Assembly: GCA_030526225.1 (NCBI GenBank)
Contig: JAUNDF010000021.1
Span: 1 to 29,419, forward strand
DNA: 29,419 bases
Source of the DNA: Clostridia bacterium
Lineage (GTDB): Bacteria > Bacillota > Clostridia > Christensenellales > Aristaeellaceae
Reading direction: 5' to 3'
Shown here piece by piece: positions 11,685 through 29,308 of this stretch. A model generated the notes under the pieces. That model saw nothing but the letters and a program-made list of their open reading frames with translations, did no database searches and was not told the origin of the DNA. The number at the start of each line of letters is the position of its first letter. Positions within the stretch are counted from its first letter, which is position 1. Position numbers and translations under genes: made by a program.

Positions 11685-11720
11685 CCCCTTCCGGGTAAAT
11701 TCGGAAGGGGCTGATTTTTT
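11685..11720 (+). terminator. rho-independent terminator after the GGDEF gene
   Basis: A perfect 9-bp stem, ccccttccg (11685-11693) with cggaagggg (11702-11710), has an 8-nt loop and is followed by ctgatttttt. Confidence 0.75.
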
Positions 11721-11743
11721 GTTCATATTCAGTTGACAAACGG

Positions 11744-11752
11744 TGTTATAAT
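11744..11752 (+). promoter_or_regulatory. extended -10 promoter element (TGtTATAAT) upstream of the activase-like gene
   Basis: tgttataat is at 11744-11752, about 95 nt upstream of ATG 11846. The nearby TTGACA at 11733 is only 8 nt from the -10, so it is not a usable -35. Confidence 0.4.
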
Positions 11753-11845
11753 GTACGATGGGCCAATTTTCATTATGAATCCATCAGGGTATCAGGTGAA
11801 AATGCCCGGCTGAAATATAGACAACCAGAAAAGAGAGCATGACTG

Positions 11846-14800
11846 ATGAAAATCTATCACGCAGGAATTGATATCGGTTCCACCACGGTGAAGCTGGTGG
11901 TTGTGGATGATAACGGCCAAATTCTCTTTGGCGATTACAGGCGGCACCATGCCCATACCCGGGAGACGGTTTATGATTTGCTCACCGATGCCCGGGCGCT
12001 GCTGGGCGAGTGCAGCCTGAAGGTAAAAATCACCGGCTCCGGTGCCATCAACCTCGGCAAAGCGCTGGGCATCGGGTTTATTCAGGAGGTGGTGGCGGTT
12101 GCCGCTGCCCTGAACCATGCTGCCCCCCAAACGGATGTGGCCATCGAGCTGGGCGGCGAGGATGCGAAGATTATCTACTTCGCCGGCGGTCTTGAGGAGC
12201 GGATGAACGGCGTTTGCGCCGGCGGCACGGGCTCCTTTATCGACCAGATGGCATCCCTCCTGCAGACGGATGCCGAGGGGCTGAACGAGGCTGCCAAGGA
12301 GTACAGGCAGATTTACCCCATCGCGGCCCGGTGCGGCGTGTTTGCCAAGTCGGATATTCAGCCGCTGATTAACGAGGGCGCCACCAAGGCAGACCTTGCC
12401 GCCTCCATCTTTCAGGCGGTGGTTAACCAGACCATTTCCGGTCTGGCCTGCGGCAAGCCCATCCGCGGCACGGTGGCCTTTCTGGGCGGTCCGCTGCATT
12501 TTCTCACATAGCTTCGGGCGGCCTTTGTCCGCACATTAAAGCTGACGGAAGAGACCGCGGTGATGCCGGAAAACTCCCACCTGTTTGCGGCCATGGGCGC
12601 GGCACTGGAGGCACAGGATGCCGATGCGGTGCCCCTTTCCAACCTGATTGAAAAGCTGCAGTCCGGGGTGAAGGTCAATTTTGAAATGCCCCGTCTGGCT
12701 CCCCTGTTCGGCAATCAGGAGGAGTATGACGAGTTCTGCCGCCGCCACCAAAAGGCAACAGTGAAGCGGGCGGAGCTTGCGGCCTACCGCGGGAACTGCT
12801 ATCTGGGCATTGATGCCGGCTCCACCACCACCAAGCTGGCGCTGATTGGCCAACAGGGTGAGCTGCTGTGGGATTACTACGCCAACAATCAGGGCAACCC
12901 CATCCTGACGGCGCAAAACGCCATCCGTCAGCTGCAGCAGCTTATGCCCAGGGGCGCGGAAATTGCCCGGGCCTGCTCCACCGGCTATGGTGAAGCACTG
13001 CTGAAGGCCGCCTTCTCCCTGGACGAAGGCGTGGTGGAGACCATCGCCCACTGCACCGCCGCCACCTTCTTTGACCCGGCGGTGGACTGTGTGCTGGATA
13101 TCGGCGGTCAGGATATGAAGTGCATCCGGCTGAAGAACGGCACGGTGGACAGCATCATGCTCAACGAGGCCTGCTCCTCCGGCTGCGGCTCCTTTATCGA
13201 GAACTTCGCCACTTCCCTCGGCTATACCGCAGAGGGCTTTGCCAAGGAGGCGCTGTTTGCCGAATCTCCTGTGGACCTTGGCACCCGCTGCACCGTGTTT
13301 ATGAATTCCAACGTCAAGCAGGCCCAGAAGGAGGGCGCATCTGTTGCGGATATCTCCTCGGGTCTGGCATACTCGGTCATCAAAAACGCGCTGTACAAGG
13401 TCATCAAGCTGACATCCCCCGAGGAGCTGGGTCGGCACATTGTGGTGCAGGGCGGCACCTTCCACAATCAGGCGGTGCTTCGTGCCTTTGAGAAAATCGC
13501 CGGTGTGGATGCCACCTGTCCCGATATTTCCGGCCTGATGGGTGCCTTCGGTGCGGCGCTGGTGGCAAAGAACCACCATGCGGAAAAGAGCAGCATGCTC
13601 TCCTTTGATGAAATCCTGAACCTGTCCTATACCGCATCCTCCGTGCGCTGCGGCGGCTGCTCCAACCGCTGCATGCTCACTGTCAACCAGTTCCCCGGCG
13701 GCAGAAAGCACATCAGCGGCAACCGCTGTGAAAAGGGTGCCGGCAATACGGACAAGCAGGCACAGGCACCCAACATGGTGGCCTATAAGCGTCAGCGGCT
13801 GTTTGACTATCAGCCCCTTGCGGAGGATGCTGCCCAAAGAGGCACCATCGGCCTGCCGCGGGTGCTGAGCATGTACGAGAACTATCCCTTCTGGGCCACA
13901 TTCTTCGGCAGCCTTGGCTTCCGGGTGGTGCTGTCCCCCTGGTCATCAAGAAAAATCTACGAGCGGGGCATGGAGTCCATCCCCTCCGAATCGGAGTGCT
14001 ATCCGGCCAAGCTGTCCCACGGCCATGTGCAGTGGCTGATTGATCAGGGCATTACCACCATCTTCCACCCCTGCATCTTCTATGAGCATCAGGAGGCGAA
14101 GAACGCTCAAAACCACTACAACTGCCCCATTGTGGTTTCCTATGCGGAGAACCTGAAGAACAACATGGAAACCATCAGCAGCGGGGAAGTGCGCTACATT
14201 CGCCCCTTTATCGCCTTTACGGATGAAAAAACCGCCGCCGACCGGCTGGTGAAAACGGCGGAAAAGGAATGGGGCATCCCGGCAGGGGAGGTGCGCCGTG
14301 CGGTGCATCTGGCATGGGCCGAGCAGCAAAAGGCCAAGGCAGATATCCGCGCCGAGGGTCAAAAGCGCCTTGCGGAAATGGAAGCCGCCGGCGGCCGCGG
14401 CATTGTTTTGGCCGGGCGACCCTATCACATCGACCCTGAAATCAACCACGGCATTCCGGAGCTGATTGCCTCCTACGGCCTGACCGTGCTGACCGAGGAC
14501 AGCCTGCCCCTGAATGTGGCCCCGGAAAGCACCATCCGCGTGGTGGACCAGTGGGTGTACCATTCCCGCCTGTACAACGCGGTTGAATTTGTGGCCCGCC
14601 GCAACGATCTGGAGCTGATTCAGCTCAACTCCTTCGGCTGCGGTCTGGATGCCGTGACCACCGATCAGGTGAGCGAGATTCTGGAAAAGCACAACAAGCT
14701 GTACACGGCGCTGAAGATTGATGAGGTGAACAACCTTGGCGCGGTGCGCATCCGCATCCGGTCTCTGCTGGCGGCCATGGAAATCCGGCAGGAGAAGGGC

Positions 14801-16072
14801 ATTTGCGCCTGTGAAGGTGATGACAGCTACAAGCGTGTCGCCTTCACCAAAGAGATGTTCCGGGAGGGATATACCATTCTGGCACCTCAGATGAGCCCCA
14901 TCCATTTTGATTTGCTGGAGCCTGTGTTCCGCAAGCGCGGCTATCAGCTGGTGATGCTGGATAACGACAACCGGCAGGCCATCGACACCGGCTTGAAATT
15001 CGTCAACAACGATGCCTGCTTCCCCTCCATTACCGTGGTGGGGCAGATTATGCAGGCGGTGCTGTCCGGCAAGTATGATACCAACCGGCTGGCGGTGATT
15101 ATGAGCCAGACCGGCGGCTGCTGCCGGGCCAGCAACTATGTGGCCTTCATCCGCCGTGCGCTGGAAAAGGCAGGGCTGAGCCACATCCCCGTCATCTCCC
15201 TCAACGCCAACGGCATGGAGAAGAACGATGGCTTCCGCCTGTCCCCGGGGCTGATTGTGGATCTGGTGAAGGCGGTGGTATACGGCGATTTGCTGATGCG
15301 CTGCCTGTACCGGGTGCGCCCCTATGAGCTGGAGCCCGGCTCTGCCAACGCACTGCACCGCAAGTGGCGGGACATCTGCATTGAGGAGCTGACTTGCGAG
15401 CACGGCAAGCGCGGCTACCGGACGCTGTGCCGGCAGATTGTGGAGGCCTTTGACGCGTTCCCCATTGATGAAACTGTCAGGAAGCCCAAGGTGGGCATTG
15501 TGGGCGAAATTCTGGTGAAGTACATGCCCCTTGCCAACAACCATCTGGTGGAGCTGCTGGAGCAGGAGGGTGCCGAAGCCGTGGTGCCCGATCTGGTGGA
15601 CTTCTTCAACTACTGCGTGTATGGCGGCAAGTATCGCTTTGCCTTCCTCGGCGCGCAGAAGAGCAGCGACATCATCGCCAACATCGGTGTCAAGCTGATT
15701 CGCCGCATCCGCAAGCCTGCCCTTGATGCGCTGAAAAACAGCAAGCGCTTTGAGGTCCCCATGCCCATTGAGGACATTGCCCGGCAGACAAAGCCCTTCC
15801 TGTCCCTTGGCAATCAGTACGGCGAGGGCTGGTTCCTCACCGGCGAAATGATTGAGCTGGTCAAGACCGGCGTGCCCAACATTGTGTGCATTCAGCCCTT
15901 TGCCTGCCTGCCCAATCATGTGGTGGGCAAGGGTGTCATCAAGAAGCTAAAGGAAGCCTACCCGCAGGCCAATATTGCCGCCATTGACTACGATCCCGGC
16001 GCCAGCGAGGTCAATCAGCTCAACCGCCTGAAGCTGATGCTGACCACTGCCAAAAACCGCATGCAGGAATAA
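11846..16072 (+). CDS. acyl-CoA dehydratase activase-related protein (two BcrAD/BadFG-type ATPase modules + HgdB/DUF2229-like C-terminal region), full length only if TAG 12509-12511 is decoded
   Basis: The standard-code pieces 11846..12511 and 12560..16072 share a frame. Translation across the TAG gives ..VAFLGGPLHFLT*LRAAFVRTLKLTEETAVMPENSHLFAAMGAAL.., which continues a single ATPase module. There are two ASKHA phosphate-1 motifs (GIDIGSTTVKLVV and GIDAGSTTTKLAL) and a Cys cluster CGGCSNRC. The joined length of 1408 aa matches what I remember for this fused family (about 1400 aa). Stop is TAA. Confidence 0.85.
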
Positions 16073-16103
16073 GCATTCCTGCCTTCCCTATGGAACACAA
16101 AAA

Positions 16104-16160
16104 CGCTCCGGTGAATATCTGCGGCTTCATGCAGAATCATTCATCGGAGCGCTTATTTTA
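16104..16160. terminator. candidate terminator hairpin between convergent genes
   Basis: cgctccg (16104-16110) pairs with cggagcg (16145-16151). An inner ctgc/gcag stem sits in the loop, and cttatttta follows. Confidence 0.4.
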
Positions 16161-16223
16161 TGGAAGAAGCATTTGACCGTCATCGGCTTGCCTTGGCCTG
16201 ATTGGCAAATGCTGGTAAATGTG

Positions 16224-17273
16224 TTATGATGATGCCAGCTCCTGCATCAGCTCATGCACGGAGACGATGCGGTCAATCCGTCCGGCGTTGGCGCCGCAGA
16301 AGAGCAGACCGTTGTCCACATCCCCCTGTACGGCCATGATCAGCCGCTCGGTGATGCAGTAGGGGATTTCATTGGGCTTGCAGCCGGCCAGACAGCCAAG
16401 GCATTTTTTCGGGCGGAAGGTCTCCGTCTCCAGCTGCTGCAGAAAGCGGTTGCTGATGGCTCTGCCCGGCATGCCCACCGGAGACTTGATGATACGCAAA
16501 TCCCCATCGGCGGCGCTGATGTATGCCTGCTTGTAGGCATCGGCGGCGTCGCATTCGTGGGTGCACACAAAGCGGCTGGCCATCTGTACGCCGCTTGCCC
16601 CCAGAGAAAAGGCATGCTCGATGTCCTGCCTGTCCCAGATGCCGCCGGCCACAATCACAGGGATGGCGGTGCCGTTTTCTTCAGCCGTTTCGTTAACGAA
16701 ATCAATGATGCGGCGGATTTCCTCGTCATAGTCCGGGATATCCGGCAGCTGTTCCGGCTTAAAGCCCAGATGGCCGCCTGCCTTGGGGCCCTCGATGACC
16801 ACAAAGTCCGGGAGACGATGATCACTCCGCAGCCATTTTTTGATGATGACCTGTGCCGCCCGCAGGGATGACACAATGGGCGCAATCTTCACATCCGAGC
16901 CTGCGGTCAGTGCGGGCAAATCAAGGGGCAGACCGGCACCGGAAATGATGACATCCGCGCCGCAGGCCACCGCCTGACGGACATGGGCGTGGTAATCAGC
17001 CAGCGCCACCATGATGTTGGCACCCACAAGGCCATTGCCGCCCGAAAGCTGACGGGCCAACAGGAGCTGCTCCTCAATGGCCTTCAGATTGCATTCCTTG
17101 GGATTGTGCGGAAAATCCGCCATATAAAAACCAATCTGCGCCGTGGAGATGATGCCGATGCCGCCTTCTTTGGCCACGGCACCCGACAGCTTGCCCATGC
17201 TGACACCCACACCCATGCCGCCCTGAATAATCGGGATGGCGGCTGTTTTATTGCCAATCACCAATGGATTCAT
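16224..17273 (-). CDS. nitronate monooxygenase / NPD-family FMN oxidoreductase (FabK-like fold)
   Basis: MNPLVIGNKTAAIPIIQGGMGVGVSMGKLSGAVAKEGGIGIIS, GADVIISGAGLP, VIEGPKAGGHLGF and IPVIVAGGIWD are typical of the 2-nitropropane dioxygenase/FabK family. I set the start at ATG 17273 (GGAG lies 9 nt upstream). The ORF-track start at 17351 adds 26 unsupported residues. Stop is TAA. Confidence 0.85.
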   Translation of the reverse strand: MNPLVIGNKTAAIPIIQGGMGVGVSMGKLSGAVAKEGGIGIISTAQIGFYMADFPHNPKECNLKAIEEQLLLARQLSGGNGLVGANIMVALADYHAHVRQAVACGADVIISGAGLPLDLPALTAGSDVKIAPIVSSLRAAQVIIKKWLRSDHRLPDFVVIEGPKAGGHLGFKPEQLPDIPDYDEEIRRIIDFVNETAEENGTAIPVIVAGGIWDRQDIEHAFSLGASGVQMASRFVCTHECDAADAYKQAYISAADGDLRIIKSPVGMPGRAISNRFLQQLETETFRPKKCLGCLAGCKPNEIPYCITERLIMAVQGDVDNGLLFCGANAGRIDRIVSVHELMQELASS

Positions 17274-17340
17274 TTCAATACACTCCGTTCGTTTTGTCTT
17301 AACCAGTATAAACGCCCGCGGCCATCCGTTCAATTTACAG

Positions 17341-17362
17341 AAATGTGGCAATTGTCACATTT
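17341..17362. promoter_or_regulatory. 22-bp near-perfect palindrome, candidate TetR operator in the divergent intergenic region
   Basis: AAATGTGgCAATTGtCACATTT has perfect 7-bp arms, a palindromic CAATTG core and one mismatched pair. It sits about 20 nt upstream of the TetR RBS (AAGGAG, 17383-17388) and between the divergent starts at 17273 and 17396. Confidence 0.45.
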
Positions 17363-17395
17363 GGCGGCGGGGCGATGAAGCCAAGGAGCATGACC

Positions 17396-17899
17396 ATGGA
17401 AAAGAACGCGAAGCATTATCTGGCCGAAGCGCTGATTCTGCTGATGAAGGACTCGCCCCTGTAGGAGATTTCCGTCAGCCAGATTGTCCGGCGCGCCGGT
17501 GTATCCCGCATGACCTATTACCGCTATTTCTCCGACAAGGAGGAGCTGCTGCAGTTCTACATGAATTACCTTTTCTCCCTGTTTATGGAGCAGGAGGCGG
17601 TTTCGCATGCGCCCTTCGGCAGCAGGGAGCATGTGCGGGATACCCTGCTGTTTTTTCGGGATTACGGGGACTTTGCCCGGTGCATTTATCGCTCCGGCAA
17701 TGACGGCATCATGCTGCGGATGGTCAACCGCTACATGGCCATGCAGCCCGGCTTTGAAACGGCCAGCGCGGCCAGACGGTACGCCTTTTACTACTACGCC
17801 GGTGCCATCTACAACTGCTATATCGAATGGGCGCTGGAGGATTTTGCAACGCCGGTGGAGGAACTGACCGGCATCATCTGCGCCTTCCCGCGGCCATAA
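17396..17899 (+). CDS. TetR/AcrR-family transcriptional regulator, full length only if TAG 17462-17464 is decoded
   Basis: AAGGAG lies 7 nt upstream of ATG 17396. Translation gives MEKNAKHYLAEALILLMKDSPL*EISVSQIVRRAGVSRMTYYRYFSDKEELL. This is a canonical TetR N-terminal HTH with the TAG just before helix 2. The standard-code ORF (17510..17899) would start inside the HTH at the M of SRMTYY and has no RBS. Stop is TAA. Confidence 0.8.
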
Positions 17900-17902
17900 G
17901 AA

Positions 17903-17948
17903 AAACGCTCCCGGCACCTCAGCCATTGCTGAAGGGTCGGGAGCGTTT
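17903..17948. terminator. hairpin between the convergent TetR and CotH genes
   Basis: aaacgctcccg (17903-17913) pairs with cgggagcgttt (17938-17948). The loop contains a smaller cctcagc/gctgaagg stem. Confidence 0.55.
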
Positions 17949-17962
17949 GCGTGTCTTGGTTG

Positions 17963-19323
17963 TCAATTGGTGCCGAATACAATCAGCATCAGCTCATAAT
18001 CCGGCAGCTCGCGGATTTGGGCAAGGTTTTCATCCACCCATGCGATTCTGTCCCTGGTCCACTGCTTGATGGTCGCCACCTCGCCGTCGTAGGTGGCGTT
18101 TTCATCCAGCACATACGTGGGCGGGATTTCCTCCAGCTCGCCGTTCATGTAGGCGGTCAAATCGATTTCCTGCGGATTCAGGATGGTCTTGATGACGGGC
18201 CAGATGCTGTAGTTCAGCGCCTGTGCCGCGTACTGCTTTTGACTGAGCTCGTCAATCAGCCCGCCGTCTGAAGACGCATCGGTGAGGATGGCCTTCAGCA
18301 CCTGCCAGCGCTCCAGCACAAGCTGCAGGAAGGCGTCATCCGCCAGCAGCCTCTGCAGCCAGCTATTGTTCAGGCTGGTCAGCTGGAAGCCCTCGCTGTC
18401 CTCGTTCAGTGCACCCCAGGGGCAGTAGTCGAAATCCCACAGGGGCCGAAGAACAGCTTGCTGTCCTTTGTCTTGTAGAAATAATTGTTGCCGCCGCTGA
18501 TGCCGTCGGAATTTTTGGTGACCATCTGCATCAGGAAATAATCGGCGGCGCTGGTCACATCCATGTACTCCGAGTAGTGCACGCCGTCGGCATCGCACCA
18601 TGTGCCGCTCATCAACGCTTCATCCAGCCGGCGGATAAAATCAGCTGTGTCGGCCTTTACATCATCGGCAACATCGCTCTCAAAGCACAGGGATACCTGG
18701 CTGGGAAGATTGATATCGCCGGTCACGCTCAGGCTGAGCATGCAGGCACCGTCATCCTCATCCAGATCGATGGAATTGCCGGCAATGCGCACCTGATTGC
18801 CCAGCTCGTACACGCCCAGATATTTGCCGTTCATCATCAGATTCACCGGCACCATTTTGGGGGTATAGGGCAGGCCCAGCTGCTGAGCGATGCGGTAGGT
18901 CAGCTCGTTGCGCATCATGGTGGGGTCAAGGGCGTTGGCCAAAAGCACCCAGTGCTTGCCCTTGCCCATGCCCAGCAGATTGGCGCCCTTTTCCAGCTTG
19001 AATTTGTAGGGCTTCTTGTCCTGCTTCCAGGTGGAATTGCCGCGGCCGCGGATGTACGACAGGGTGTAGGCGGTCTCCGCAGGCTGATTGCACCCGTAGG
19101 CGTTGGTGTACCCATCGGGCAGGGTGATGGTCACCGTGCCGGTGCAGGTTGTTTTGTGGTCAGGGTCGCTGTGCATGGCATCGATGCCGTCCTCATTCAG
19201 GCTCAGGGATACCAGCGGAATGCCCGTCTCCAGCAGTTTTTCGGGGGTGATGTCCTCCGCACCCAGCGCGATGCAGGGAAGCATCACCAGCAGGGCCAGA
19301 AGCCAAATCAGTTTCTTCATCAT
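17963..19323 (-). pseudogene. cotH: CotH-family protein (secreted, with signal peptide) carrying a 1-nt frameshift in a G4/C4 run at 18442-18445
   Basis: AAGGAG lies 5 nt upstream of ATG 19323. The signal peptide is MMKKLIWLLALLVMLPCIALG. CotH signatures are NSTWKQDKKPYKFKL, KHWVLLANALDPTMMRNELTYRIA, VNLMMNGKYLGVYELGNQVR and GGNNYFYKTKDSKLFFGP. The text continues in another frame as LWDFDYCPWGALNE... to the TGA at 17963. Restoring ggcccCctgtgg (C5 instead of C4) joins the frames. The length of 1361 nt is 3n-1. Confidence 0.8.
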
Positions 19324-19495
19324 GGCTGCTCCTTTTTTGAAATGCAATGGTATCATTATACCCGGAACAGGGGAAGTGTGCAACAAAGGGATGCAAAGCC
19401 CAGGGAAGGCATGTGTACCGGCATGCAGGAAGAAATGATATCCTCTGCTGTTTGCAGCCAACGCAAACAATCCGGGACATATAAATAATGAATTG

Positions 19496-19654
19496 AAATG
19501 TAAGACTATCTATGCTACAGTAATAGTAAATCCAAAGAAGTCGGGTGTAAACGATGAAGGAAATGCTGATAAAAAAGAGAATTTCTTTCCAAAGAAAATG
19601 GCGCTTAATAAACTGGGCGTTAAGCAGATAACAGCAATTATTCAACGAGTGTGA
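19496..19654 (+). pseudogene. 3' remnant of a gene; its last ~23 codons are a diverged copy of the 3' end of the 19722..21227 gene
   Basis: The frame-2 stretch ..NADKKENFFPKKMALNKLGVKQITAIIQRV ends in TGA TAA. The second copy reads ..RRIKYFFPKKMALNKLGVKEIIAFLQRK, also ending TGA TAA. There is no start codon or RBS, and the frame opens right after a TGA at 19493. Confidence 0.4.
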
Positions 19655-19762
19655 TAACAATCAGGTGTTTTGTGAACGCTGTCCTGATGAACGCACAATC
19701 TATCGCAACGAGGTGAATTACATGGGCAATTATCCGCAAACACAGCAGAAAGCTGTTGAACT
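19581..19762. repeat. direct repeat, copy 1 (182 bp, roughly 90 percent identical to copy 2, no indels)
   Basis: atttctttccaaagaaaatggcgcttaataaactgggcgttaag ... caatcaggtgttttgtgaacgc.gtcctgatgaacgcacaatctatcgcaacgaggtgaatta.atgggcaattatccgcaaacacagcagaaagctgttgaact recurs exactly 1573 bp downstream. The repeat spans a gene 3' end, the TGA-TAA stops, the spacer, the RBS and the first 14 codons of the next gene. Confidence 0.9.
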
Positions 19763-21227
19763 CTGCCAGTCCATTCGGCAGAGGCTTGATGAAATCAGAG
19801 CAACTCACATACAGTATAAAAACCGACTTGCCCAGCTTTCAACCACAGCAACGAAAAAGAGCAGAAAAGCTTTATGGTTCACATTGCTCGGCGTATTTTT
19901 AACCGAATTTGTATTTATAATATTCAATATAAGCTTCCTTCTGCTTTTTTGGCTTGAAATTGCGATTGTTGTTATCGGCATTGTAGCAGGTCGGATAGAA
20001 AAGAAAGCAATCGCCAATAAAGAAATCGAATGCATGGTTCAATAGATTCAGCTTCAGAAAGAGAAAGATAAACTTGAAGAGGAATTCCGGGCATGGTCAA
20101 AATGCGAGGATATCCTTTCCCGCTATATGCCGGTCGATGGACAGATTACCGGATAGTCTGTTCATTTTTGGGATGTTTTGCTTGGTCTCGCTGACGGTAT
20201 CAAAGCAGACATATCCAAAGCCTCCCAGCGGAACAATGTCGATAACGACTCAGAATTCGTTTGGAATACACTGCAGCGCATTCGGTTGGCTCCTGTTCTA
20301 AATGCATACCGAAAGGAACGAGTGGAGGCTAAAAAGCAAATTTCGGCTTAGCAACACAATCAGTCGGTTTCTGCGGACACCAGTCAGAAGGAAAGCTCAA
20401 CTGCGGAAAACTCAGCAGCTGATAATGGCGGCAATGAAGCATGTGGCAATGAGAACCCCGGAAGCCAGGTATCAACGTATATTCGAACATTATATGCTTA
20501 GGCTGTACCTGACTATCATGACCAAAGAGAATACTTTAAGTTCCTTTATTCAAAAAATGGCATAGGATTTATTGTAGATTACGAGTACTATAACGGATAT
20601 GCGTCTTTTTCTGCTTTATAGGTACCGGATTTATCATTGAGCAATGATGAACTGCTTGTATATGAATATGAACATAGGGTTTTTTACAGCAACATAGGAG
20701 TTGTTCAAGACGATTATCAGAGCGTCATTGGTCATTTGCCATTATGCGAACAATACATCGTAAAAGCCGATCGTTCGCAAATGAACATACAGACCATTCT
20801 CCTGTTGCTAAAAGCGTATGAATTGTCGGGGAAATCCTTATTCCCATGTCATAACAGCGCTGCACCGCAAAAATCCAATGAAAATCAACAGCAAAAGCCA
20901 ATCAATTTGAAGGGTATGATACAAGTGCAATACTCCCGTACTGCTGTCGGTATGGGTGATGAGTACATGATGGGCATTTACACCATCACGCTGCCAGAAT
21001 CTGCTACTTTAAGCGACCTGATTAATACAGCACTGGACGGCGGGCACGGAAATGACTGGCCAATTGCGCATGTAGTAGGTGACCCGGAGTGGCTTATTGA
21101 GTCTGATCGGGGGACGCTTGCCAGTGTCAGAGCGACAAGCCGTAGAATAAAGTATTTCTTTCCAAAGAAAATGGCGCTTAATAAACTGGGCGTTAAGGAG
21201 ATAATAGCATTTCTGCAACGAAAGTGA
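19722..21227 (+). CDS. hypothetical membrane-anchored protein (501 aa) whose frame contains five in-frame TAG codons
   Basis: GAGGTG lies 6 nt upstream of ATG 19722. The frame has TAG at 20043, 20154, 20349, 20499 and 20619, and no TAA or TGA until the TGA-TAA at 21225-21230. The N-terminus has two hydrophobic helices (ALWFTLLGVFLTEFVFIIFNISFLLLFWLEIAIVVIGIVAG). A coiled-coil-like stretch (QLQKEKDKLEEEF) and a low-complexity linker follow. A C-terminal ~100-aa domain (MIQVQYSRTAVGMGDEYMMGIYTITLPESATLSDLI..) is homologous to the ORF starting at 29309. The standard-code pieces are 19665..20045 and 20637..21227. Confidence 0.65.
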
Positions 21228-21335
21228 TAACAATCAGGTGTTTTGTGAACGCCGTCCTGATGAACGCACAATCTATCGCAACGAGGTGAATTATATGGGC
21301 AATTATCCGCAAACACAGCAGAAAGCTGTTGAACT
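21154..21335. repeat. direct repeat, copy 2
   Basis: This is the same 182-bp unit as 19581..19762, offset by 1573 bp. Similarity stops at 21335/19762. Confidence 0.9.
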
Positions 21336-21342
21336 TTGGTGA
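21295..21342 (+). pseudogene. truncated duplicate of the first 14 codons of the 19722 gene (MGNYPQTQQKAVEL), ending at TGA 21340
   Basis: It has the same RBS and the same ATG context as 19722. The repeat ends after codon 14 and a TGA follows two codons later. Confidence 0.6.
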
Positions 21343-21402
21343 GCTGTCAATCACAAATTTTATTAGATTCCGGTATCAAAGCGCGGCAGAGCCCTGGCAT
21401 GC

Positions 21403-22011
21403 ATGCTGCTGAGCCATATAGGCATAACCGAAGTGAAGCAAGAGCAGCCAAAGCAAAAAACAACTGAAGAATTATAGGTACTGGGTTGTCAATAGGTATA
21501 TCGTAATCTTGTAGAAACCCTTGAGCAAGCAACTCAAGTTTCCGAAGGAAATCTGGCCATGTTGGTTGAAGAACAACTGGTAAAAGATAACGGCCAGACA
21601 ATGACCATTGACGAAATTATGAAACTCACACCATAGGCTAAAGCTCAAAAGGCTGCAAAGGAACTGAAAGCAAGAGAGGAAAGGAAACAAAAACTGTCAG
21701 AGATGCTGGAAAAAATGACAGTGATTGCTGAACGGGCTGACTTTTCCTTCAGCCATGATAGGGCAATAAAGCCGGATGGGCTGCGGTTTGCAGCCAGGTT
21801 TGAAGGTTGTGGCCGTGGCCATGAAGAAACGTATTTAGGCTATGTGCTTAAAGAGGGAATGTATTATTTTTATGAAGAGGACATTGCGCCGTCGGCAGGT
21901 TACTTTACATGGATTGTGTTGACCGTACCGGCATCAGCAATCAGCAACAAGGACGAGCTGAGGATATTGTGCGTTATTTTGGAGAAAAAGAGATTCCCAA
22001 GTCGTTGGTGA
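21403..22011 (+). CDS. hypothetical protein; the frame contains three in-frame TAGs; the start is uncertain
   Basis: Frame 1 is free of TAA/TGA from 21343 to the TGA at 22009-22011 (223 codons) but holds TAG at 21364, 21475, 21493 and 21634. Candidate starts are ATG 21403 (no clear RBS), ATG 21559 (GAAGGA 9 nt upstream) or ATG 21703 (the standard-code ORF). A terminator hairpin directly follows the TGA. Confidence 0.45.
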
Positions 22012-22015
22012 TTTG

Positions 22016-22043
22016 AGACCGGGAGCAGTCCCGGTCTTCTTGT
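22016..22043 (+). terminator. rho-independent terminator
   Basis: agaccggga (22016-22024) pairs with tcccggtct (22029-22037) across a 4-nt loop. tcttgt follows. Confidence 0.6.
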
Positions 22044-22094
22044 ATATCCAAAACCCAACGCTAGATGTGGGGGGAAGAATTTTGGGGTGATTTG

Positions 22095-22103
22095 TGGTAT
22101 AAT
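22095..22103 (+). promoter_or_regulatory. extended -10 element TGgTATAAT upstream of the 22177 gene
   Basis: tggtataat is at 22095-22103, about 75 nt upstream of the ATG. There is no convincing -35. Confidence 0.45.
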
Positions 22104-22176
22104 CATGTTGATATATGTAGCTGGTTCTGTTCTAAATAGTTTTTGAACAATCAGAAGAATATGAAAGGAGAACAAT

Positions 22177-24606
22177 ATGACCGATAAGTTCCTTTCCACT
22201 TTTAATGCAATCTCTGTGCCTTCTGAAAAAATATGGGATTCCGTTTTGAATACTACCGACATGCACTTTTCATCGGATAGCTGGGCCGGTGAAACGGAAG
22301 ACATGCGGCTGGAATGTGATGCTGCGGTGCTCAAGCCCGGTGCTGAAGTGGGACAATCTATCATTCCGTATTTTGGTGCTGATGCAAATCGGTTCTTTGA
22401 AGTGTTTCCGGTTTAGTCTCCTGATTCTGCTGCGGGTAGTGCTAATGTTGCCGCTGCAGAGGATTATGCGGACTGGCTGGATGTGAGTGTGGCTGCATCC
22501 AGCGGGCTGATTGCCGGAATCGTTGATGTGCTGTTTGTTGGCGAATTCTCACTTGACCGTGCAAAGGAATACGGCGAAAAGGATGTCAATAACCTTGTCA
22601 TCAAAACAGCACAGAAATTCGGCTATGACGGAAATAATATCAAGGACGCCATAGAATGTCTGGAGAAGAAGTTTCCATTTAATTCCGATCGTTTGGTGAA
22701 TGAATTTGGCGGAGCGAAACAGCATCACTTATGGGATTTTTCACACCATTTCAGTGTGCTTGGTTTGCTGTGTGCCATCCTGACGCAGTTTACAGGGAAA
22801 GTATTTGGTACCAACAAGGATGGTATATTTATTGTAAGAGAGGTTCCGGATTATCAGATTAAGGGAAAAAACTTTGTTGAAAAAATCCTTTTCGGAACAG
22901 TCAATTGGTTCTTTCATATGGTGAGTGACATGGCAGGGTCTAGTCAGTGCATTGGGCGCGGCACAGGCATTCCCGGTCCGATTGTATCACTGCTGAAATC
23001 TGTTTCTTCTCTGCCGTTTTTCAGGAACAAAAAAATCGGAGAAACTGAGTTCCATACATGGGTGTCAAAGTTATTTAACGGGACACTTCTGGCAAAACGA
23101 AACGCAGACAACAAAATCACAGAATCCATGCCTTTTGACCTGAGAACGGAAATCGGTATTCTACATGAAGGCAGCAGGCAATTGGTTCCCGTATTGATTA
23201 ACGAAGCCATCGTCCGCGGCGTTTACTGCATTCGCCGTTTGTGCCGCGAAATTGAGCAGAAGGATATTCACTCCATTGCTGACCTTGGCAGAATTGACGC
23301 GGAAAAGGTTCTGCCCTTCAACACGCCTGCCATTAAGAGAATGTGTACCATTGCATCCGGTGTGTTCTGCGTGGTTGATTCGGTTGATGCGCTGGTTCAC
23401 TCCTTGGTCGAAAGAAAAGTATCCACATTCTTCCTGCATTTGAATTTTGTTGGTGTGGCAAGATTTGTTTTGGCCATCGGGGATGATTACACTGCATTCC
23501 TGCAGGAAACACAGATCGAACGTGAGAAATCAGAATATAGAAGCTATCGGTTTGAGCGGGAAGTGGCTAAACTTGATTGGTTTGAACTGGATGCTGAACA
23601 AACGCAGCTGCTGTATTCCCTTGAACGGCTGGTATGCCTGCACGATGCCAATAATACAAAAGACGAAAAGAAAAAAGCACAGAAAATCAAATGGCTTCAT
23701 GCATGGGAGGAAAGTGCAGTCAGGAGTCTGCGCTTAGCGCCCGGAGAAGAGCAGCATTACTTCCTTGACGATGAGGAACTGTTCAGAAGATTTTCGTCAG
23801 AGAAAAACGAGAAGACCGCTCGAATGCTGATAACATTAGAAGCAGTCACCTTCAAACCTTATTTCCCGACAAATGAAGATGAAATCGCTGCATGCAAAGA
23901 ACTGAAGCTGGAACATCGTTTTATGGATACAATCTTTCTGCAGCGGCAGCATGCTGTTCAGAGAAAAGAACTGAATGATATTAAGAATGCTTATCAGTGG
24001 TACTATGATGCTTATTCCGGGACAATCCGCAATCGTTGGCTGATTGGAATCGGCACGGCTGCCGCAACTGCGTTGACTGCCGGTGTCGCACTGCATTTTG
24101 CTCCGGCAATTGCCGTTGCTCTTGTGGGAAAGGGTGCAGCTGCTTTATCGGGTGCAGCCTTGACAAGCTTTAGCCTCGCAGCCATTGGTGGCGGTGCGAT
24201 AGCAGCCGGTGGACTGGGAATGGCTGGCGGCACGATGATTATTGCCGGTGGCGGTGCGATTGTTGGATTGCTTGGCGGTGCAACGCTCACGTCTGCGGCT
24301 TCCATGCTGCTGCTCGAGGCAGATGGATATGTGTTGAATGAATGTGCCAAGCTGCTCAGCTACAGCGAGAAGGTGCTTGTATATGAACCCAATGCCGGTG
24401 AGAGAATCAATGCCCTGGCCAACACCATCAGTACCCGACTTGATACCATTAAACAGCGTTTGAACGTTTAGAGAAAGGAATTGTTGAATACGAAAGAGCA
24501 GCAGGCGCGGAAAAAGCAGGAAGACCGCATCAAAACCATTGAAAAAAGCATCGGCTACCTGCAGGAGACGGCCAAAAAGCTGGGTGAGCTGGCAAGGAGA
24601 AGTTGA
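22177..24606 (+). CDS. large hypothetical protein (809 aa) with a C-terminal Gly/Ala-rich (glycine-zipper-like) membrane segment; two in-frame TAGs
   Basis: AAAGGAG lies 6 nt upstream of ATG 22177. TAG 22414-22416 joins the same-frame ORFs 22177..22416 and 22483..24471 (..FEVFPV*SPDSAAGSANVAAAEDYADWLDVSVAASSG..). TAG 24469-24471 is followed by 44 more in-frame codons of helical text (RKELLNTKEQQARKKQEDRIKTIEKSIGYLQETAKKLGELARRS) up to TGA 24604-24606. A strong terminator follows 38 nt later. The C-terminal region IGIGTAAATALTAGVALHFAPAIAVALVGKGAAALSGAALTSFSLAAIGGGAIAAGGLGMAGGTMIIAGGGAIVGLLGG is predicted membrane-inserting. I recognised no family. Confidence 0.7.
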
Positions 24607-24643
24607 GAAAAACAGTACGTAAAGAAAAAATCATATTAACCCA

Positions 24644-24686
24644 AAAGGCTGCGGGGAGTTTTTCTTCCGCAGCCTTTGCTTTATTT
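24644..24686 (+). terminator. rho-independent terminator
   Basis: A perfect 11-bp stem, aaaggctgcgg (24644-24654) with ccgcagccttt (24667-24677), has a 12-nt loop and the tail gctttattt. Confidence 0.75.
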
Positions 24687-24947
24687 GAAGTCGAAGTGGC
24701 GGGATTCGAAGCGAATGTCATATCTGGTTTCAAAGACGGCCACATTAAACTAGGTGTAACTGCAGAAATGACTTCGATGGTGATTTGACCCTGAAAACAA
24801 TTGCATGAAACTACATTCTATTGGTGTTGGGGTGTATTCCTTATACCCCAGTCGATTCCCGCACACTTTTTTGGAATTGGGGTATAATTTGAGAGCGTTC
24901 AGAGCAGTTTTCTTCGTTTCATTATGCATGAAAACGGAGGATAACAT

Positions 24948-25367
24948 ATGCATAATTATGACAACAAACGGCTTCCTGCTGTGATTCAGGACACCGAGAA
25001 TGGGATAACTTACATTCTCAATGGCGACTACTATTTCCCCTTGCTCTGTGATGAGGAGGACGATGAACCGCTTGGACGCTGGGGTTGGATTCGCATGCAG
25101 CATCTGATGGAGAACCATCCCGGTCGCTACTCGTATCTGCTTCTGTCCGGCCAATTGTTCCCACACCTGCGTGAAGTCGAGGAACAGGCCGAGCGTCGGT
25201 TTGATGTGTTGATGGCACAGTTCAAAGTAGCTTTGGGTATCACAGAGAAGCTGAAGGCTGCTGATCAGCTGCGTTGGGTACAGCTGATGAATTCCGCACG
25301 GCACGATGTGGAGGAAATCATCATGGACGAATTGATTTATGATGAAGGAGGGGCTGTGCATGGCTAA
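24948..25367 (+). CDS. tnpV: TnpV-like transposon-encoded protein
   Basis: A GGAGG RBS is present. The 139-aa product has the C-terminal signature GITEKLKAADQLRWVQLMNSARHDVEEIIMDELIY. I recognise this from the TnpV family of clostridial Tn4451-type and related elements, from memory and without a search. Stop is TAA. Confidence 0.7.
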   Translation: MHNYDNKRLPAVIQDTENGITYILNGDYYFPLLCDEEDDEPLGRWGWIRMQHLMENHPGRYSYLLLSGQLFPHLREVEEQAERRFDVLMAQFKVALGITEKLKAADQLRWVQLMNSARHDVEEIIMDELIYDEGGAVHG

Positions 25368-25665
25368 GAAGGTAAACAAACCTGTTGACGAGCAGAATAT
25401 CAACACGTCACATGAGCAGGATCCTGTTTGGGAGAATTGCGGGATGGATTTGAGTATGTATCCCCCTTGCATGAACGCCCAACAGTTGGCTGCTGTTCTG
25501 AAGACTCACGACAAAGCGGTGTATCGTGTCATTAAACGGCATGACTTTTTCCCCGGGTTTAAAGTGTTAGGAGCTGTTCGTATCAGCCGTGATGCCCTGA
25601 TTGACTGGATTGAGCTCCAGTGCAAGAAGCAGTTTGAAGAAGAGGAGGAAGAACAGGATGAATAA
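25360..25665 (+). CDS. helix-turn-helix DNA-binding protein (excisionase/MerR-like HTH) with an acidic tail
   Basis: GAAGGAGGGG lies 6 nt upstream of ATG 25360, which overlaps the TnpV stop. The HTH-like text is MNAQQLAAVLKTHDKAVYRVIKRHDFFPGFKVLGAVRISRDALIDWI. The tail is EEEEEEQDE. Stop is TAA. Confidence 0.65.
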   Translation: MAKKVNKPVDEQNINTSHEQDPVWENCGMDLSMYPPCMNAQQLAAVLKTHDKAVYRVIKRHDFFPGFKVLGAVRISRDALIDWIELQCKKQFEEEEEEQDE

Positions 25666-25876
25666 CCGTGAAACAAAGTTCATGGACGCTTCTGTGAGCG
25701 AGCCGGCTGTGTATACCATAAATGACATCAAGGATATCCTTCAAGTAAGCAGACCAACCGTCGATAAGCTTATTAAGCAGCATGAATTCCCCTGCTTCCT
25801 CTGGTGCGGCAAGTACAGGATTCCAAAGAAAGGTTTTGATGAATGGCTCCGACGGAAGGGAGCGGGCATGCGGTGA
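25658..25876 (+). CDS. excisionase-family helix-turn-helix protein
   Basis: GAGGAGGAAG lies 5 nt upstream of ATG 25658, which overlaps the previous stop. YTINDIKDILQVSRPTVDKLIKQHEFPCFLWCGKYRIPKKGFDEWL is typical of Xis-type HTH_17 proteins. Stop is TGA. Confidence 0.75.
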   Translation: MNNRETKFMDASVSEPAVYTINDIKDILQVSRPTVDKLIKQHEFPCFLWCGKYRIPKKGFDEWLRRKGAGMR

Positions 25877-25884
25877 TTTGTTTC

Positions 25885-26172
25885 ATGCTTAAGTTGACCA
25901 CACGGCTGGTAACTGCTCCGATGATGCTGATGGCTGGCATTATCTACATCATCGGCCATGTGGCAGCATCGCTTTCCTCCCTCGTCACCAATCTGGTGGG
26001 CACTGTTTTCCTCATCGGCTCCTTCTGCTCCTGGCGGATGGGTGTCAACACCGATACCGTTGCACTGATGGTTGTTACCGGCGTGGTTGTCCTGCTGCTT
26101 CCGATGATTGTGAAGGGCCTGCTGTATGCCGGGCTGAAGCTGATAGGGCTGCTGGCAGGATTGGTTCATTGA
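25885..26172 (+). CDS. small hydrophobic membrane protein (about 95 aa, 3 predicted helices)
   Basis: MLKLTTRLVTAPMMLMAGIIYIIGHVAASLSSLVTNLVGTVFLIGSF...VALMVVTGVVVLLLPMIV. The start is uncertain (ATG 25885, GTG 25873 or ATG 25843). Stop is TGA. Confidence 0.55.
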   Translation: MLKLTTRLVTAPMMLMAGIIYIIGHVAASLSSLVTNLVGTVFLIGSFCSWRMGVNTDTVALMVVTGVVVLLLPMIVKGLLYAGLKLIGLLAGLVH

Positions 26173-26187
26173 TTCCTGATAAGATCA

Positions 26188-26277
26188 GGGGTGTGGTCAC
26201 CATGGCCACACCCCTGTGGCCGCCATGGCCACGCTACTGGGGCCACCATGGCACCACCCCGGGGCTATCATAGCCCC
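26188..26277. repeat. GC-rich patch with three CCATGGC(C/A)C motifs about 23-24 bp apart and two inverted repeats
   Basis: The motifs are ccatggccac at 26200, ccatggccac at 26223 and ccatggcac at 26247. One hairpin is ggggtgtgg (26188-26196) with ccacacccc (26206-26214). A perfect palindrome, ggggctat-c-atagcccc, is at 26261-26277. The patch stands out from the surrounding AT-rich DNA. Confidence 0.5.
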
Positions 26278-26410
26278 ACCTCTGGTGTTTTCATGATAAC
26301 GAAATCATTTGAACTCAAATGCAAAAGTTCAGGTCAGTGAAAAAGCCAAGGACGGCTATATGGTTTCCTGAAAGAGCGTGTTTGTTTGGGCCGAAGCAGG
26401 CGTAACACTA

Positions 26411-26446
26411 AAAGTGCTGTATCGAATAGTATCGGTACAGCACTTT
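26411..26446 (-). terminator. strong hairpin terminator after the 26460..27428 gene
   Basis: A stem of about 15 bp is formed by aaagtgctgtatcga (26411-26425) and tcggtacagcacttt (26432-26446), with one G-U pair and a 6-nt loop. It lies 13 nt beyond the TAA at 26460-26462. Confidence 0.65.
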
Positions 26447-26459
26447 CGATTGTGTAGGC

Positions 26460-27428
26460 TTAGGCGAATAAGTCTTCCCAACGAATGATTGATTCTGGCA
26501 GATTGTTTCGGTATTCGGCATAAAAGCTCAAGAGATCTCTTCGTTCTATGTAGTGTATAGATTCATGCTCTATCTCATTATCATAATTCTTTGAACTCGA
26601 AAAAAGAAAAACAGTGAATCCGCTACTTAGGAATCCATCATAGTCTTTGACATTGATAATCCCATCTTTTCCCTTGACCTGCACAACTGCGCGCTAAGAA
26701 TTTCCAAGTTCTCGCGAATGCAGAATACACTCAATCAGCGGTGTGGTTGACTTGTTTGCAATGGAATTTGAGAGCACATACATATTATACCTTACTTGAA
26801 TATAGCTAATAACTAGTTCCTCGAGATCAAAATCCGGCAGACGATCGATTACATCTTGCCCCTGCGACGATTTATCTACGGTGTAAAAATGGCTTTTGGA
26901 AGCAACATTGTAAGCATGTTTAGAAAACTCAATCATAATCTTCTCGCGGTTTCGCTCGACAATGCCGCCTCGAGCCCGAGTAAACATAGCCTTGATTTGC
27001 CCTGGAACATCGGTTCCGTAACGAAACGCATAGACTGGCAAACGAGCGCCTATGTCGTAATCTTTTATGCAATACGGTTCTGCCGCGCCTTTTGCTCTGC
27101 ATATCCAATAGAAGCCGCTACTGTCACGTGTCCAGAACAGATCGTTCTATCCTGCTTCAAGAAAAAGATTTAAAGCAGAATCAATTCGATATTTCTTTTT
27201 CTTTTTTGTTGCTTCAGCTTCTCCTTGTTTTCGTGCAGCATCATAAAAATCTTCGAACCCGGTAAAGCAATTGTCCGGGGTGTGTACACAACTCCAACCA
27301 ATCACCAAGTATTGTTCCTTTGGATTACTTAAGCAATAGCGAAGGACATCAGGTCGTACTTGCTACGCTTGTTCTTTTGTTTCTCCAGGTTTCAGATGAA
27401 TTCGTGCCACAAAATCATTATTTGTCAT
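26460..27428 (-). CDS. hypothetical protein (322 aa), possibly Mrr-like (N-terminal GW-type module + PD-(D/E)xK-like C-terminus); three in-frame TAGs
   Basis: GGAGG lies 6 nt upstream of ATG 27428. The frame holds TAG at 27365-27363, 27149-27147 and 26696-26694 (CTA on the plus strand) and no TAA/TGA until TAA 26462-26460, which the terminator follows. The standard-code pieces 26694..27041 and 26460..26684 share the frame. The nuclease idea is weak and rests only on YLVIGWSCV...DLFWTRDSSGFYWICRAKG and DFDLEELV...PLIECIL...VVQVKGK. Confidence 0.65.
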
Positions 27429-27678
27429 TTTCGACCTCCATCTAACATACAAGATCAATATAAACGGAACGATAAGCCAGGCTTTGCAGAATACTTTTGA
27501 ACCTCACAAAAGGCTTCTTTTCATAGTTTGTTAATAGTTATGGCAATCATTGTGAAAACTAAATAGACATTTTGAAATCTGGTGCAATGGCAAGGGAAAG
27601 GGCGTTTTTCGAGTTTTGCCACAACGGAAAAAACTGTGGATTTGACAGAAATAGGGCTAAAGATGAATTGATTTATTC

Positions 27679-28881
27679 TTACTCTAGTGTATCTAATGCT
27701 TCAAGATTCGCCCTATATTGAGATGCACGCCCCTTCTGAGAATAGATGGTATAGCCTTCAATCTGTGATAGGCATTTTCTGATGATGTAAAGACTGCTAT
27801 CGCAGATGTTGGAAAGCTCAGAAATAGAAAGGCTATCGCTTTCGCAAATTGATACCTGAATCAATATGAAAAGGACTTCCTTGGTTTTTTGTTCAAGAAT
27901 TAGTCTGTCTACAATATCACTATAATGGTTTAGAAGAGACTCTTTTTCTTGCAAAAACAGGAATACTTGTTCGCTTGCTTCGCGGATAAAAGACAAAAAG
28001 CTGATTACGAAGCGGGTCATATCACCAAAATTTCGTTTATCATTTGTTGTTTTGAACATTTTATAGTATTCTGTTCGATGACTTTTAATAACGAACGAAA
28101 GTCGCAGTGCGACAAGAAGGTGTATGTTTTCTTGAGATAGCATACAACTACTGATAAAACGTGTCATACGACCATTGCCGTTATAGAATGGATGTGCATA
28201 TCCAAACATATAGTGAAATGCGGAAATTCTGATAAGTGGATCATAATTTGCATCATTAAGAAACTGAAGAGCATGCTCCATAGCTTCATTTAGCGCAACT
28301 TCTGGATATATACCATCATGAATGGAATGCCCGCCTTTAACAACAGAAACTGTACCTTTTCTAAAGTAAACGCCATCAGGAGCATCGTTGAAGTCTTCTT
28401 TGACAACTTCGTCGAGAACAAAGCTATTATATAGTTCTCTTATATCAAGACATGATTGGAGCGGTATCCTATCTTTTTGAAGCAGCAATTGATATTTCCT
28501 AATCATACCATCAAATCGTTTCCCCTTTTGCCCATTCTCAACAACTATCAACTCATCCTTGATTTCTTTTCTCGTACTATGAATATTTTCCATTTCATTT
28601 GTTTGATGAATTTCTTCGATGATGGCCTGCCTTAAAAACTGGCGACGGGCAACCGAAGGGAGTCGACTTGAGCACCTATCAATGTATAGGTTGATGTTTC
28701 TGATTTCTGAGAGCTCGTGCAATATCTCATCACAATACAGGATAAAGCAAGGATGTCCATTGATTGCAAAATTTGGCGTTATTGCGGACACGCTATCGCG
28801 CATAGACATAGCCATCGTGGCTACATTCTTCTTATCTTTTGATTCAAAGTACATTTTATACATGCCTCTGTATTCTTTCAT
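27679..28881 (-). CDS. Fic-family protein (AMPylase-type Fic domain + C-terminal winged-helix-like region)
   Basis: AAGGAGG lies 7 nt upstream of ATG 28881. The canonical Fic motif HPFYNGNGRMTR (HxFx[D/E]GNGRxxR) is present. The 400-aa product has no internal TAG. Stop is TAA. Confidence 0.9.
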   Translation of the reverse strand: MKEYRGMYKMYFESKDKKNVATMAMSMRDSVSAITPNFAINGHPCFILYCDEILHELSEIRNINLYIDRCSSRLPSVARRQFLRQAIIEEIHQTNEMENIHSTRKEIKDELIVVENGQKGKRFDGMIRKYQLLLQKDRIPLQSCLDIRELYNSFVLDEVVKEDFNDAPDGVYFRKGTVSVVKGGHSIHDGIYPEVALNEAMEHALQFLNDANYDPLIRISAFHYMFGYAHPFYNGNGRMTRFISSCMLSQENIHLLVALRLSFVIKSHRTEYYKMFKTTNDKRNFGDMTRFVISFLSFIREASEQVFLFLQEKESLLNHYSDIVDRLILEQKTKEVLFILIQVSICESDSLSISELSNICDSSLYIIRKCLSQIEGYTIYSQKGRASQYRANLEALDTLE

Positions 28882-29308
28882 GCTTTATCCTCCTTTGAGC
28901 AACACAAGTGTAGTATATCATCTTTTTTTTATTTAGTCCATTCACAAAAGTCGGTTCAATGTAAAAAAACGCGATATTTTTATATTGAAATCAACAAAAA
29001 ATAATGCAAAGTAAAAAGTGCTGTGTTTGTGAATGCCAACTAGTATCTGGATATTGTGAGAATGAGTAACTGAGATAGATGGAGAAGCGGATAGAATGCT
29101 GGTTTGGCAAATAGTCAGGGGAAAAGTAATCTTCAGAAAACCAATGCCAACTGTCCGGTTATACAACATGAATCACATAATAGTTGTTTTACAACTTTTT
29201 TCTCTGGATTAATTTATTCGATTCACTTGATTGCAATGGGTCATGACTAGCAGTAGAATAACAATGTGTTAGTAGTTGCCTAGTATGGCATGAGAAGGAG
29301 GAGTGGCC

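Follow-up and report, generated by a model that had tools for sequence, protein, structure and literature searches.

In-frame TAG codons in seven genes of a Clostridia contig suggest that UAG is translated in the host cell

Gene A and its five in-frame TAG codons

We analyzed a 29,419-nucleotide contig, referred to here as the window, from a GenBank metagenome-assembled genome of an uncultured, gut-type organism labelled 'Clostridia bacterium' (locus tags Q4C54_). In this contig, a reading frame that we call gene A (19722-21230, forward strand) extends for 501 codons to a tandem TGA TAA and contains five in-frame TAG (amber) codons. Positions 1 to ~19,480 of the window have a GC content of 58-64% and carry ordinary bacterial chromosomal genes, and the part from ~19,500 to the window end, in which gene A lies, has a GC content of 37-50% (~45% for this island vs ~60% for the chromosome). 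About 10 kb of the island is visible in the window. An earlier note on this DNA had called the locus AT-rich, which is a relative term for a region of 42-47% GC next to a chromosome of 58-64% GC.

The ATG of gene A at 19722 is preceded, at a distance of 6 nucleotides, by the ribosome-binding site (RBS) GAGGTG (19710-19715), and the five TAGs are codons 108 (20043-20045), 145 (20154-20156), 210 (20349-20351), 260 (20499-20501), and 300 (20619-20621). In the sequence and its translation, the start codon, RBS, five TAGs, lack of TAA and TGA, and double stop at 21225-21230 are all as the earlier note had described them. The frame is free of TAA and TGA over 531 codons (19632-21224), and outside gene A the same frame meets TAA or TGA every 20-60 nucleotides in the island. 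The note had considered so long a frame without these two stops extremely unlikely to occur by chance; with the trinucleotide frequencies of the island, the probability of 531 such codons is 7e-9, and a frame free of TAA and TGA was seen in 0 of 200,000 first-order Markov simulations of gene A.

As a second line of evidence, the six frames were compared by a codon-usage likelihood that was trained on the TAG-free genes of the island and in which internal TAGs were penalized. The TAG-containing frame was the best of the six for the N-terminal segment, for three of the four segments between TAGs, for the C-terminal segment, and for all of 20046-20618. The competing open reading frames (ORFs) in the +1 frame, which had been described as non-coding in appearance, translate to unconvincing text.

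For gene A alone, the bias in stop type (five TAGs, no TAA or TGA) has P = 6.5e-3 under random nonsense mutation. An exhaustive HMMER search of 1.84 billion representative proteins returned 34 relatives of protein A, which are limited to residues 399-496. The sole exception, a repeat protein, weakly matches the Q/N-rich linker that directly precedes these residues. Because homologues reach only the last ~100 residues, the support that gene A itself provides consists of frame statistics and codon usage. No homologue ending at the gene A TAG positions was found in this search. A word-indexed search with gene A also gave no match, but it missed the annotated fragment of the gene as well and is hence uninformative.

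Six further genes with in-frame TAG codons

Seven genes, distributed over both strands of the window, together contain 16 in-frame TAGs (five in gene A, three in gene B, two in gene C, three in gene D, and one in each of three chromosomal genes), with no in-frame TAA or TGA and no frameshift. In six of the seven, homologues or domain profiles are continuous across the TAG.

The three chromosomal genes are otherwise intact and belong to a set of ~11-12 genes on the chromosomal part of the window. The first (5893-7293, forward strand) encodes a solute-binding protein with a signal peptide and an SBP_bac_3 domain, and its TAG at 6262 lies inside this domain, downstream of the signal peptide. The second (11846-16072, forward strand; 1408 codons and a stop) encodes a CoA-enzyme activase with a TAG at 12509 inside the first BcrAD_BadFG ATPase domain; the 120 best homologues are all contiguous at this position and carry E (108), Q (11), or A (1). 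In the third, a TetR-family regulator gene (17375-17899, forward strand), the TAG at 17462 falls inside the helix-turn-helix. The Pfam domains SBP_bac_3 and TetR_N, as well as alignments to PDB entries, span the TAGs at 6262 and 17462.

The other three TAG-bearing genes lie in the island. Gene B (21403-22011, forward strand; ~202 codons) contains TAGs at 21475, 21493, and 21634 and no other stop; its start is uncertain, as there is no clear RBS and the frame is free of TAA and TGA from 21343. Gene C (22177-24606, forward strand; 809 codons; TAGs at 22414 and 24469) matches the PADLOC model of BnzB, a protein of the Bunzi system, with E = 1.5e-47. It has three full-length homologues at 57-61% identity, of which two have 812-815 residues and the third, with an additional N-terminal domain, has 1,161. 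Each of them can be aligned on either side of the two TAGs, and the alignments take in the 45 residues past the TAG at 24469. Gene D (26460-27428, reverse strand; 322 codons; TAGs at 27363, 27147, and 26694) has a GGAGG RBS, matches the profile of the PDC-S02 defence-candidate family over residues 8-321, and is 41% identical to a contiguous 297-residue protein of Streptococcus salivarius megaplasmids. A public Logan gene call reads through gene D with Q at each TAG. The strong GGAG RBS and ATG (22177) of gene C lie upstream of its first TAG, as do the RBS and ATG of gene D. The earlier note had proposed gene A as the cleanest locus at which amber decoding could be tested; genes C and D and the activase gene offer cleaner tests, since homologues of full length are available for them.

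Given the codon content of the seven genes, the probability that random nonsense mutation would produce TAG only is ~6e-6 to 2e-5. TAG does not serve as a terminator in the window: each of the 21 credible genes has TAA or TGA as its stop, which has a probability of ~0.01-0.03 in this small sample on the assumption that TAG makes up 15-20% of stops. The sequences around the 16 TAGs share no motif, which speaks against a systematic artefact of base calling as well as against a local signal for recoding.

Four Logan contigs (SRR24915835) are 100% identical to the window over 9492-12844, 15998-19610, 21306-26252, and 26267-29343. They reproduce 11 of the 16 TAGs and the junction between chromosome and island, and the five TAGs of gene A lie outside their coverage. 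An assembly artefact was rejected, since an independent assembler gave the identical sequence wherever it covers the window, with the same reads probably behind both assemblies. A chimeric contig was also rejected, since Logan contig L090 spans the chromosome-island junction.

The standard-code annotation in GenBank holds pieces of these genes as separate proteins (MDO4483711.1, MDO4483715.1, and MDO4483718.1). The deposited pieces are a 138-residue part of the TetR regulator, the 196-residue tail of gene A (MDO4483715.1), and a 660-residue part of gene C; the N terminus of the activase is known only as a 221-residue Logan product. At least five of the TAG-bearing genes have already been split into GenBank fragments by standard annotation. 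In a rival reading that this annotation favors, TAG is an ordinary stop, and either the interrupted frames are decaying pseudogenes or the small ORFs called by NCBI's Prokaryotic Genome Annotation Pipeline are the real products. The truncated copies that flank gene A are a sign of local rearrangement, and a CotH kinase-family gene (17963-19470, reverse strand) is frameshifted into ORFs 18406-19470 and 17963-18601, the halves of which match Pfam CotH positions 1-208 and 204-321; Logan contig L090, assembled independently, has the same frameshift. Decay or separate small genes do not explain why seven genes hold 16 TAGs vs no TAA or TGA and no frameshift, however, or why codon usage stays in frame through the TAGs and the downstream parts are conserved with homologues. 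The annotated pieces would also have to start inside the activase ATPase domain, the TetR helix-turn-helix, and SBP_bac_3, with the RBS and ATG of genes C and D left upstream of the first TAG. That seven of the 21 genes should be pseudogenes, each of them made by the same stop codon, is not credible. Based on stop-type bias, domain continuity, and RBS positions, we rejected pseudogenes and separate small ORFs, an explanation that we regard as very improbable.

Proposed decoding of UAG and its possible origin

Gene A is most likely real because seven genes on the contig, three of them ordinary chromosomal genes, have in-frame TAGs and no other stops. We therefore consider it quite probable that gene A is a single genuine gene for a 501-residue protein and that UAG is translated in the host cell. 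The proposal of the earlier note that gene A is one gene read through five ambers is supported, and its strongest support comes from the six other TAG-interrupted genes on the contig. Together, these genes suggest that UAG is a sense codon in the cell from which the contig derives, at least much of the time, and that the cause is not local to gene A. Since conserved genes of the host contain TAG, UAG readthrough would be normal in this cell, whether the suppressor is chromosomal or borne by an element. In such a cell, a tRNA with anticodon CUA, encoded outside the window, would insert a polar or charged residue at UAG (Gln or Glu, or Lys or pyrrolysine), and competition from release factor 1 (RF1) would be absent or weak.

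The residues found in homologues at seven TAG columns are E/Q; A; A/S/N; E/L/K; R; N/D/R; and L/I. A BLOSUM-weighted score over these columns gives 1.6 bits for E, 1.2 for R, 0.7 for K, and 0 for Q. The ten best residues are all polar or small and are not separated by the score, and the aromatic and most of the hydrophobic residues fall outside these ten.

One variant of host-wide translation is that UAG encodes pyrrolysine throughout the bacterium, as a bacterial counterpart of the archaeal genetic code 34 (pylTSBCD). The TAG columns have no consistent standard residue and lean toward charged and polar residues that include K and R, and in archaea the genome-wide use of TAG for pyrrolysine gives scattered TAGs at non-conserved positions with coding density kept. 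Screens without pyrrolysine in their reference would miss such a case. The best-populated column, that of the activase, is nevertheless E/Q, and no methylamine-related gene, PYLIS-like element, or pyl gene was found in the window. Among bacterial proteins, only a few methylamine methyltransferases and one serine dehydratase are known to contain pyrrolysine, and code 34, in which all TAGs encode pyrrolysine, is explicitly described as not observed in bacteria (Kivenson et al., preprint 10.1101/2024.09.30.615893). The window resembles code 34 in what would be a cell-wide sense reading of TAG, in internal TAGs with homology on both sides, in a sporadic and recent-looking spread, and in close relatives that are not recoded; code 34 differs in that it is archaeal and tied to methylamine methanogenesis and the pyrrolysine machinery, to which nothing in the window points. 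On balance, we consider pyrrolysine an improbable identity for UAG here.

With expectations taken from position-specific base composition, genes A-D contain 13 TAGs vs 28.5 expected (ratio 0.46), the mobility and regulatory genes of the island plus Fic contain none vs 12.3 expected (ratio 0), and the chromosomal genes contain three vs 87 expected (ratio 0.03, or ~30-fold depleted). The island genes therefore split into two classes: the TAG-bearing genes A-D and a TAG-free class of mobility/regulatory genes plus Fic (TnpV, two Xis-like HTH_17 genes, a small membrane protein, and Fic, including those at 24948-26172), in which ~5.7 TAGs would be expected at the rate seen in A-D. The near-neutral frequency of TAG in A-D, its ~30-fold depletion on the chromosome, and its absence from the mobility and regulatory genes suggest that the gene pool of the island has had UAG as a sense codon for longer than the chromosome. 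This distribution is compatible with a change in the host that is recent and narrow, and likewise with an island pool in which TAG has been sense for a long time. A mobile element may be the source of the decoding system, which the host may have tolerated or fixed only recently.

In a rival reading, the island belongs to a TAG-recoded mobile element or prophage (genetic code 15, TAG = Gln), such as those known from gut Firmicutes, that resides in a standard-code cell. Genes A-D would then be silent until a suppressor tRNA of the element, located beyond the contig end, is expressed, and the three chromosomal TAGs would be tolerated nonsense mutations or sites of leaky readthrough that this suppressor renders harmless. 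TAG-recoded gut phages and prophages that use code 15 are known (crAss-like, Lak, Garnet, and Topaz; Borges et al., preprint 10.1101/2021.08.26.457843; Peters et al., PMC9523058), and recoded prophages with a lower GC content than their standard-code Oscillospiraceae or Prevotella hosts, with TAG-free integrases, have been documented. As in these phages, the island genes have many in-frame TAGs and no other stops, the GC content is lower than that of the flanking Oscillospiraceae-type chromosome, the gene caller reads Q (in gene D), and, as in the prophages, TAG-free mobility and regulatory (lysogeny) genes lie beside TAG-bearing ones. The 45% vs 60% GC contrast, the three levels of TAG depletion given above, and the TAG stops of the nearest relative all favor such an element.

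In contrast to code-15 phages, in which structural and lysis genes are recoded, the TAG-bearing genes here are defence-type cargo (BnzB-like, PDC-S02) and orphans. No phage hallmark, integrase, or tRNA gene occurs in the 10 kb of island seen; PHROG and Pfam scans of this part found no phage structural or lysis genes, only Fic/DOC, TnpV, and HTH_17 genes, with the Fic protein as the sole PHROG match. The island DNA and genes A and C have no match in phage, plasmid, or IMG/VR collections, and searches of IMG/VR and JGI metagenomes gave no relatives of gene D. None of the chromosomal genes has TAG as its stop. Above all, the described hosts of code-15 prophages use the standard code, whereas here 3 of ~11-12 chromosomal genes carry a TAG inside a conserved domain; this is far above a normal pseudogene rate, which indicates that the host itself lives with UAG readthrough. 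A recoded element in a standard-code host is therefore unlikely in our judgment.

The odds are about even that this is the first natural bacterium with a genome-wide UAG sense codon, at an early stage (few chromosomal TAGs, nearest relatives standard) of a change that was maybe driven by a suppressor tRNA captured from a pool of TAG-recoded phages or mobile elements, in the genes of which (A-D) TAG is already in free use. In the literature that we searched, every natural reassignment of a stop in bacteria concerns UGA, and no bacterial TAG case turned up; UAG reassignment is known from phages, from some eukaryotes, and, as pyrrolysine, from some archaea. The bacterial UGA reassignments (codes 4 and 25) occur in Mycoplasmatales, several endosymbionts, a clade of Eggerthellaceae, and Gracilibacteria/Absconditabacteria. 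They resemble the case proposed here in the use of a stop codon as sense in chromosomal genes and, presumably, in having a cognate tRNA and one release factor that is lost or weakened. In the window the codon is UAG, so RF1 rather than RF2 would be concerned, and the genome is 60% GC and not reduced, whereas the known bacterial cases are mostly AT-rich or reduced genomes.

Laboratory amber-suppressor and RF1-deleted strains of Escherichia coli demonstrate that bacterial life is possible with an unassigned or reassigned UAG, given a suppressor tRNA and the removal of RF1 (PMC4434889, PMC11903333). Unlike in these engineered strains, the state proposed here would be natural, with TAGs accumulated in native genes. 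If true, a free-living-type, 60% GC member of the Clostridia for which UAG readthrough is tolerable or even necessary would be the natural counterpart of strains engineered to lack RF1. Such a bacterium would also offer a possible snapshot of a code change under way, perhaps seeded by a recoded mobile element, in which the 'ambiguous intermediate' route would be directly testable. Defence-type genes written in such a private code would be unreadable once moved to ordinary hosts.

Several observations weigh against translation of UAG in this cell. All of the evidence comes from one 29-kb contig and probably from one read set, and the frameshifted CotH gene reveals some real decay or error on that contig. 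A 2026 k-mer screen of ~2.7 million assemblies reported no bacterial TAG reassignment and warns of contamination artefacts; this concern is met here by the presence of TAGs in chromosomal genes of 60% GC, on the very contigs that were assembled independently. The nearest GTDB relative, Clostridiales bacterium UBA6386 (activase 80% identical), has genuine TAG terminators that separate distinct genes, with two TAG stops in a 24-kb locus; the comparison of synteny in relatives did not reach the solute-binding or TetR genes. A search of JGI metagenomes with a degenerate DNA pattern found no TAG at the activase site. ARAGORN detected no tRNA gene in the window, Rfam gave no match, and the RF1 gene prfA lies outside the window, so that the machinery that would decode UAG is wholly inferred. 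The TAG columns are heterogeneous and do not single out one amino acid. Within gene A, coding potential favors the TAG frame over the +1 frame save for a 49-codon polar linker (20352-20498), in which the codon-usage likelihood is marginally better in the +1 frame, and the TAG-bearing residues 108-300 have no homologue among the 1.84 billion representatives, so that continuity there rests on statistics.

Protein A and the surrounding island

The predicted layout of protein A comprises an N-terminal helix, two membrane helices (residues ~49-94), a coiled-coil-like stretch, a polar linker, an unassigned middle region, and a C-terminal beta-grasp domain. The two membrane helices had been noticed before, and residues 49-94 are indeed strongly hydrophobic. 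Protein A has no family match in Pfam, PHROGs, or PADLOC. An AlphaFold2 model of residues 301-501 has low confidence in the middle region, and the C-terminal domain is predicted to adopt a beta-grasp fold with a pLDDT of 96.5. This domain of ~100 residues (20916-21224, forward strand; beta-grasp, ubiquitin-like fold) is the only part of gene A with homologues. A fold search with it retrieved only weak ubiquitin-like neighbors (YukD, ubiquitin, and EapH1) with TM scores of ~0.5.

The C-terminal domain has no Pfam family and no match in GTDB genomes, and it defines an unannotated family. Most of its relatives are stand-alone proteins of ~100 residues, and a few have unrelated N-terminal regions. 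The consensus of the family is MIxIxYxRxSVCMGDD...GGxGNDWPxP...W.I.SNIG.LA. A further copy of the beta-grasp domain gene starts at the end of the window (29309-29419, forward strand), in agreement with the homologue reported earlier at 29309; it has an ATG at 29309 and its own GGAGG RBS and is cut off by the end of the contig.

The two copies of a 196-nucleotide direct repeat, 93% identical to each other, flank gene A. The repeat unit consists of the last 29 codons of gene A, TGA TAA, a 64-nucleotide spacer with the RBS, and the first 15 codons of the gene. In the left copy (19570-19765, forward strand), a truncated A-like tail and its TGA TAA are followed by the spacer with the RBS and by the first 15 codons of gene A itself. 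The remnant copy with TGA TAA at 19652-19657, which the earlier note had pointed out, is real and lies within this repeat; the truncated A-like C terminus (~19500-19657) precedes the left copy. The right copy (21143-21338, forward strand) contains the last 29 codons of gene A, the spacer, and a dead start, 'MGNYPQTQQKAVELW*', which is found at 21295-21342, after the right repeat copy. These surroundings look like a cassette array that has been trimmed by recombination. The Logan contigs break in or near the 196-nucleotide repeats.

Protein A sits in this cassette-like array beside a Bunzi-like defence gene. The Bunzi system consists of BnzA, a membrane TerB protein, and BnzB (Millman et al., preprint 10.1101/2022.05.11.491447). 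Gene C matches BnzB, and gene A, like BnzA, is predicted to encode two membrane helices and lies upstream in the same orientation. Unlike BnzA, protein A has no TerB domain and no match to the PADLOC BnzA model at E <= 0.1, gene B lies between A and C, and the loci of gene C homologues have unrelated upstream genes; the neighbors of these homologues are unrelated to A or B. Protein A is modelled, under weak constraints, as a two-pass membrane protein whose C-terminal beta-grasp domain would lie in the cytoplasm or outside the cell. Its probable role, loosely inferred, is that of an accessory or sensor at the membrane within a locus for defence or conflict. The C terminus of gene C is PDC-M09A-like, with a glycine-zipper/coiled-coil character. 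Two relatives of this BnzB-like protein carry an N-terminal ADP-ribosylglycohydrolase domain that the product of gene C does not have.

From ~19,500 onward, the island contains genes A, B, and C, TnpV, the two Xis-like HTH_17 genes, the small membrane protein gene, gene D, and a Fic/DOC gene (27679-28881, reverse strand), and this low-GC part looks like a defence-type mobile island. The chromosomal part encodes histidine kinases, response regulators, a GGDEF protein, the solute-binding protein, the ~1,400-residue CoA-enzyme activase, a nitronate monooxygenase, the TetR regulator, CotH, an ion channel, and a TIR-Sel1 protein (906-2303, reverse strand). The defence-type content of the window as a whole comprises the BnzB-like protein, the PDC-S02 candidate, the Fic/DOC protein, and the TIR-Sel1 protein. 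In the spacer that separates gene D from the gene for the small membrane protein, the last ~100 nucleotides of Logan contig L001 (5000-5096) are only 85% identical to the window (26192-26288), which points to another variant or strain, or else to a repeat that has diverged.

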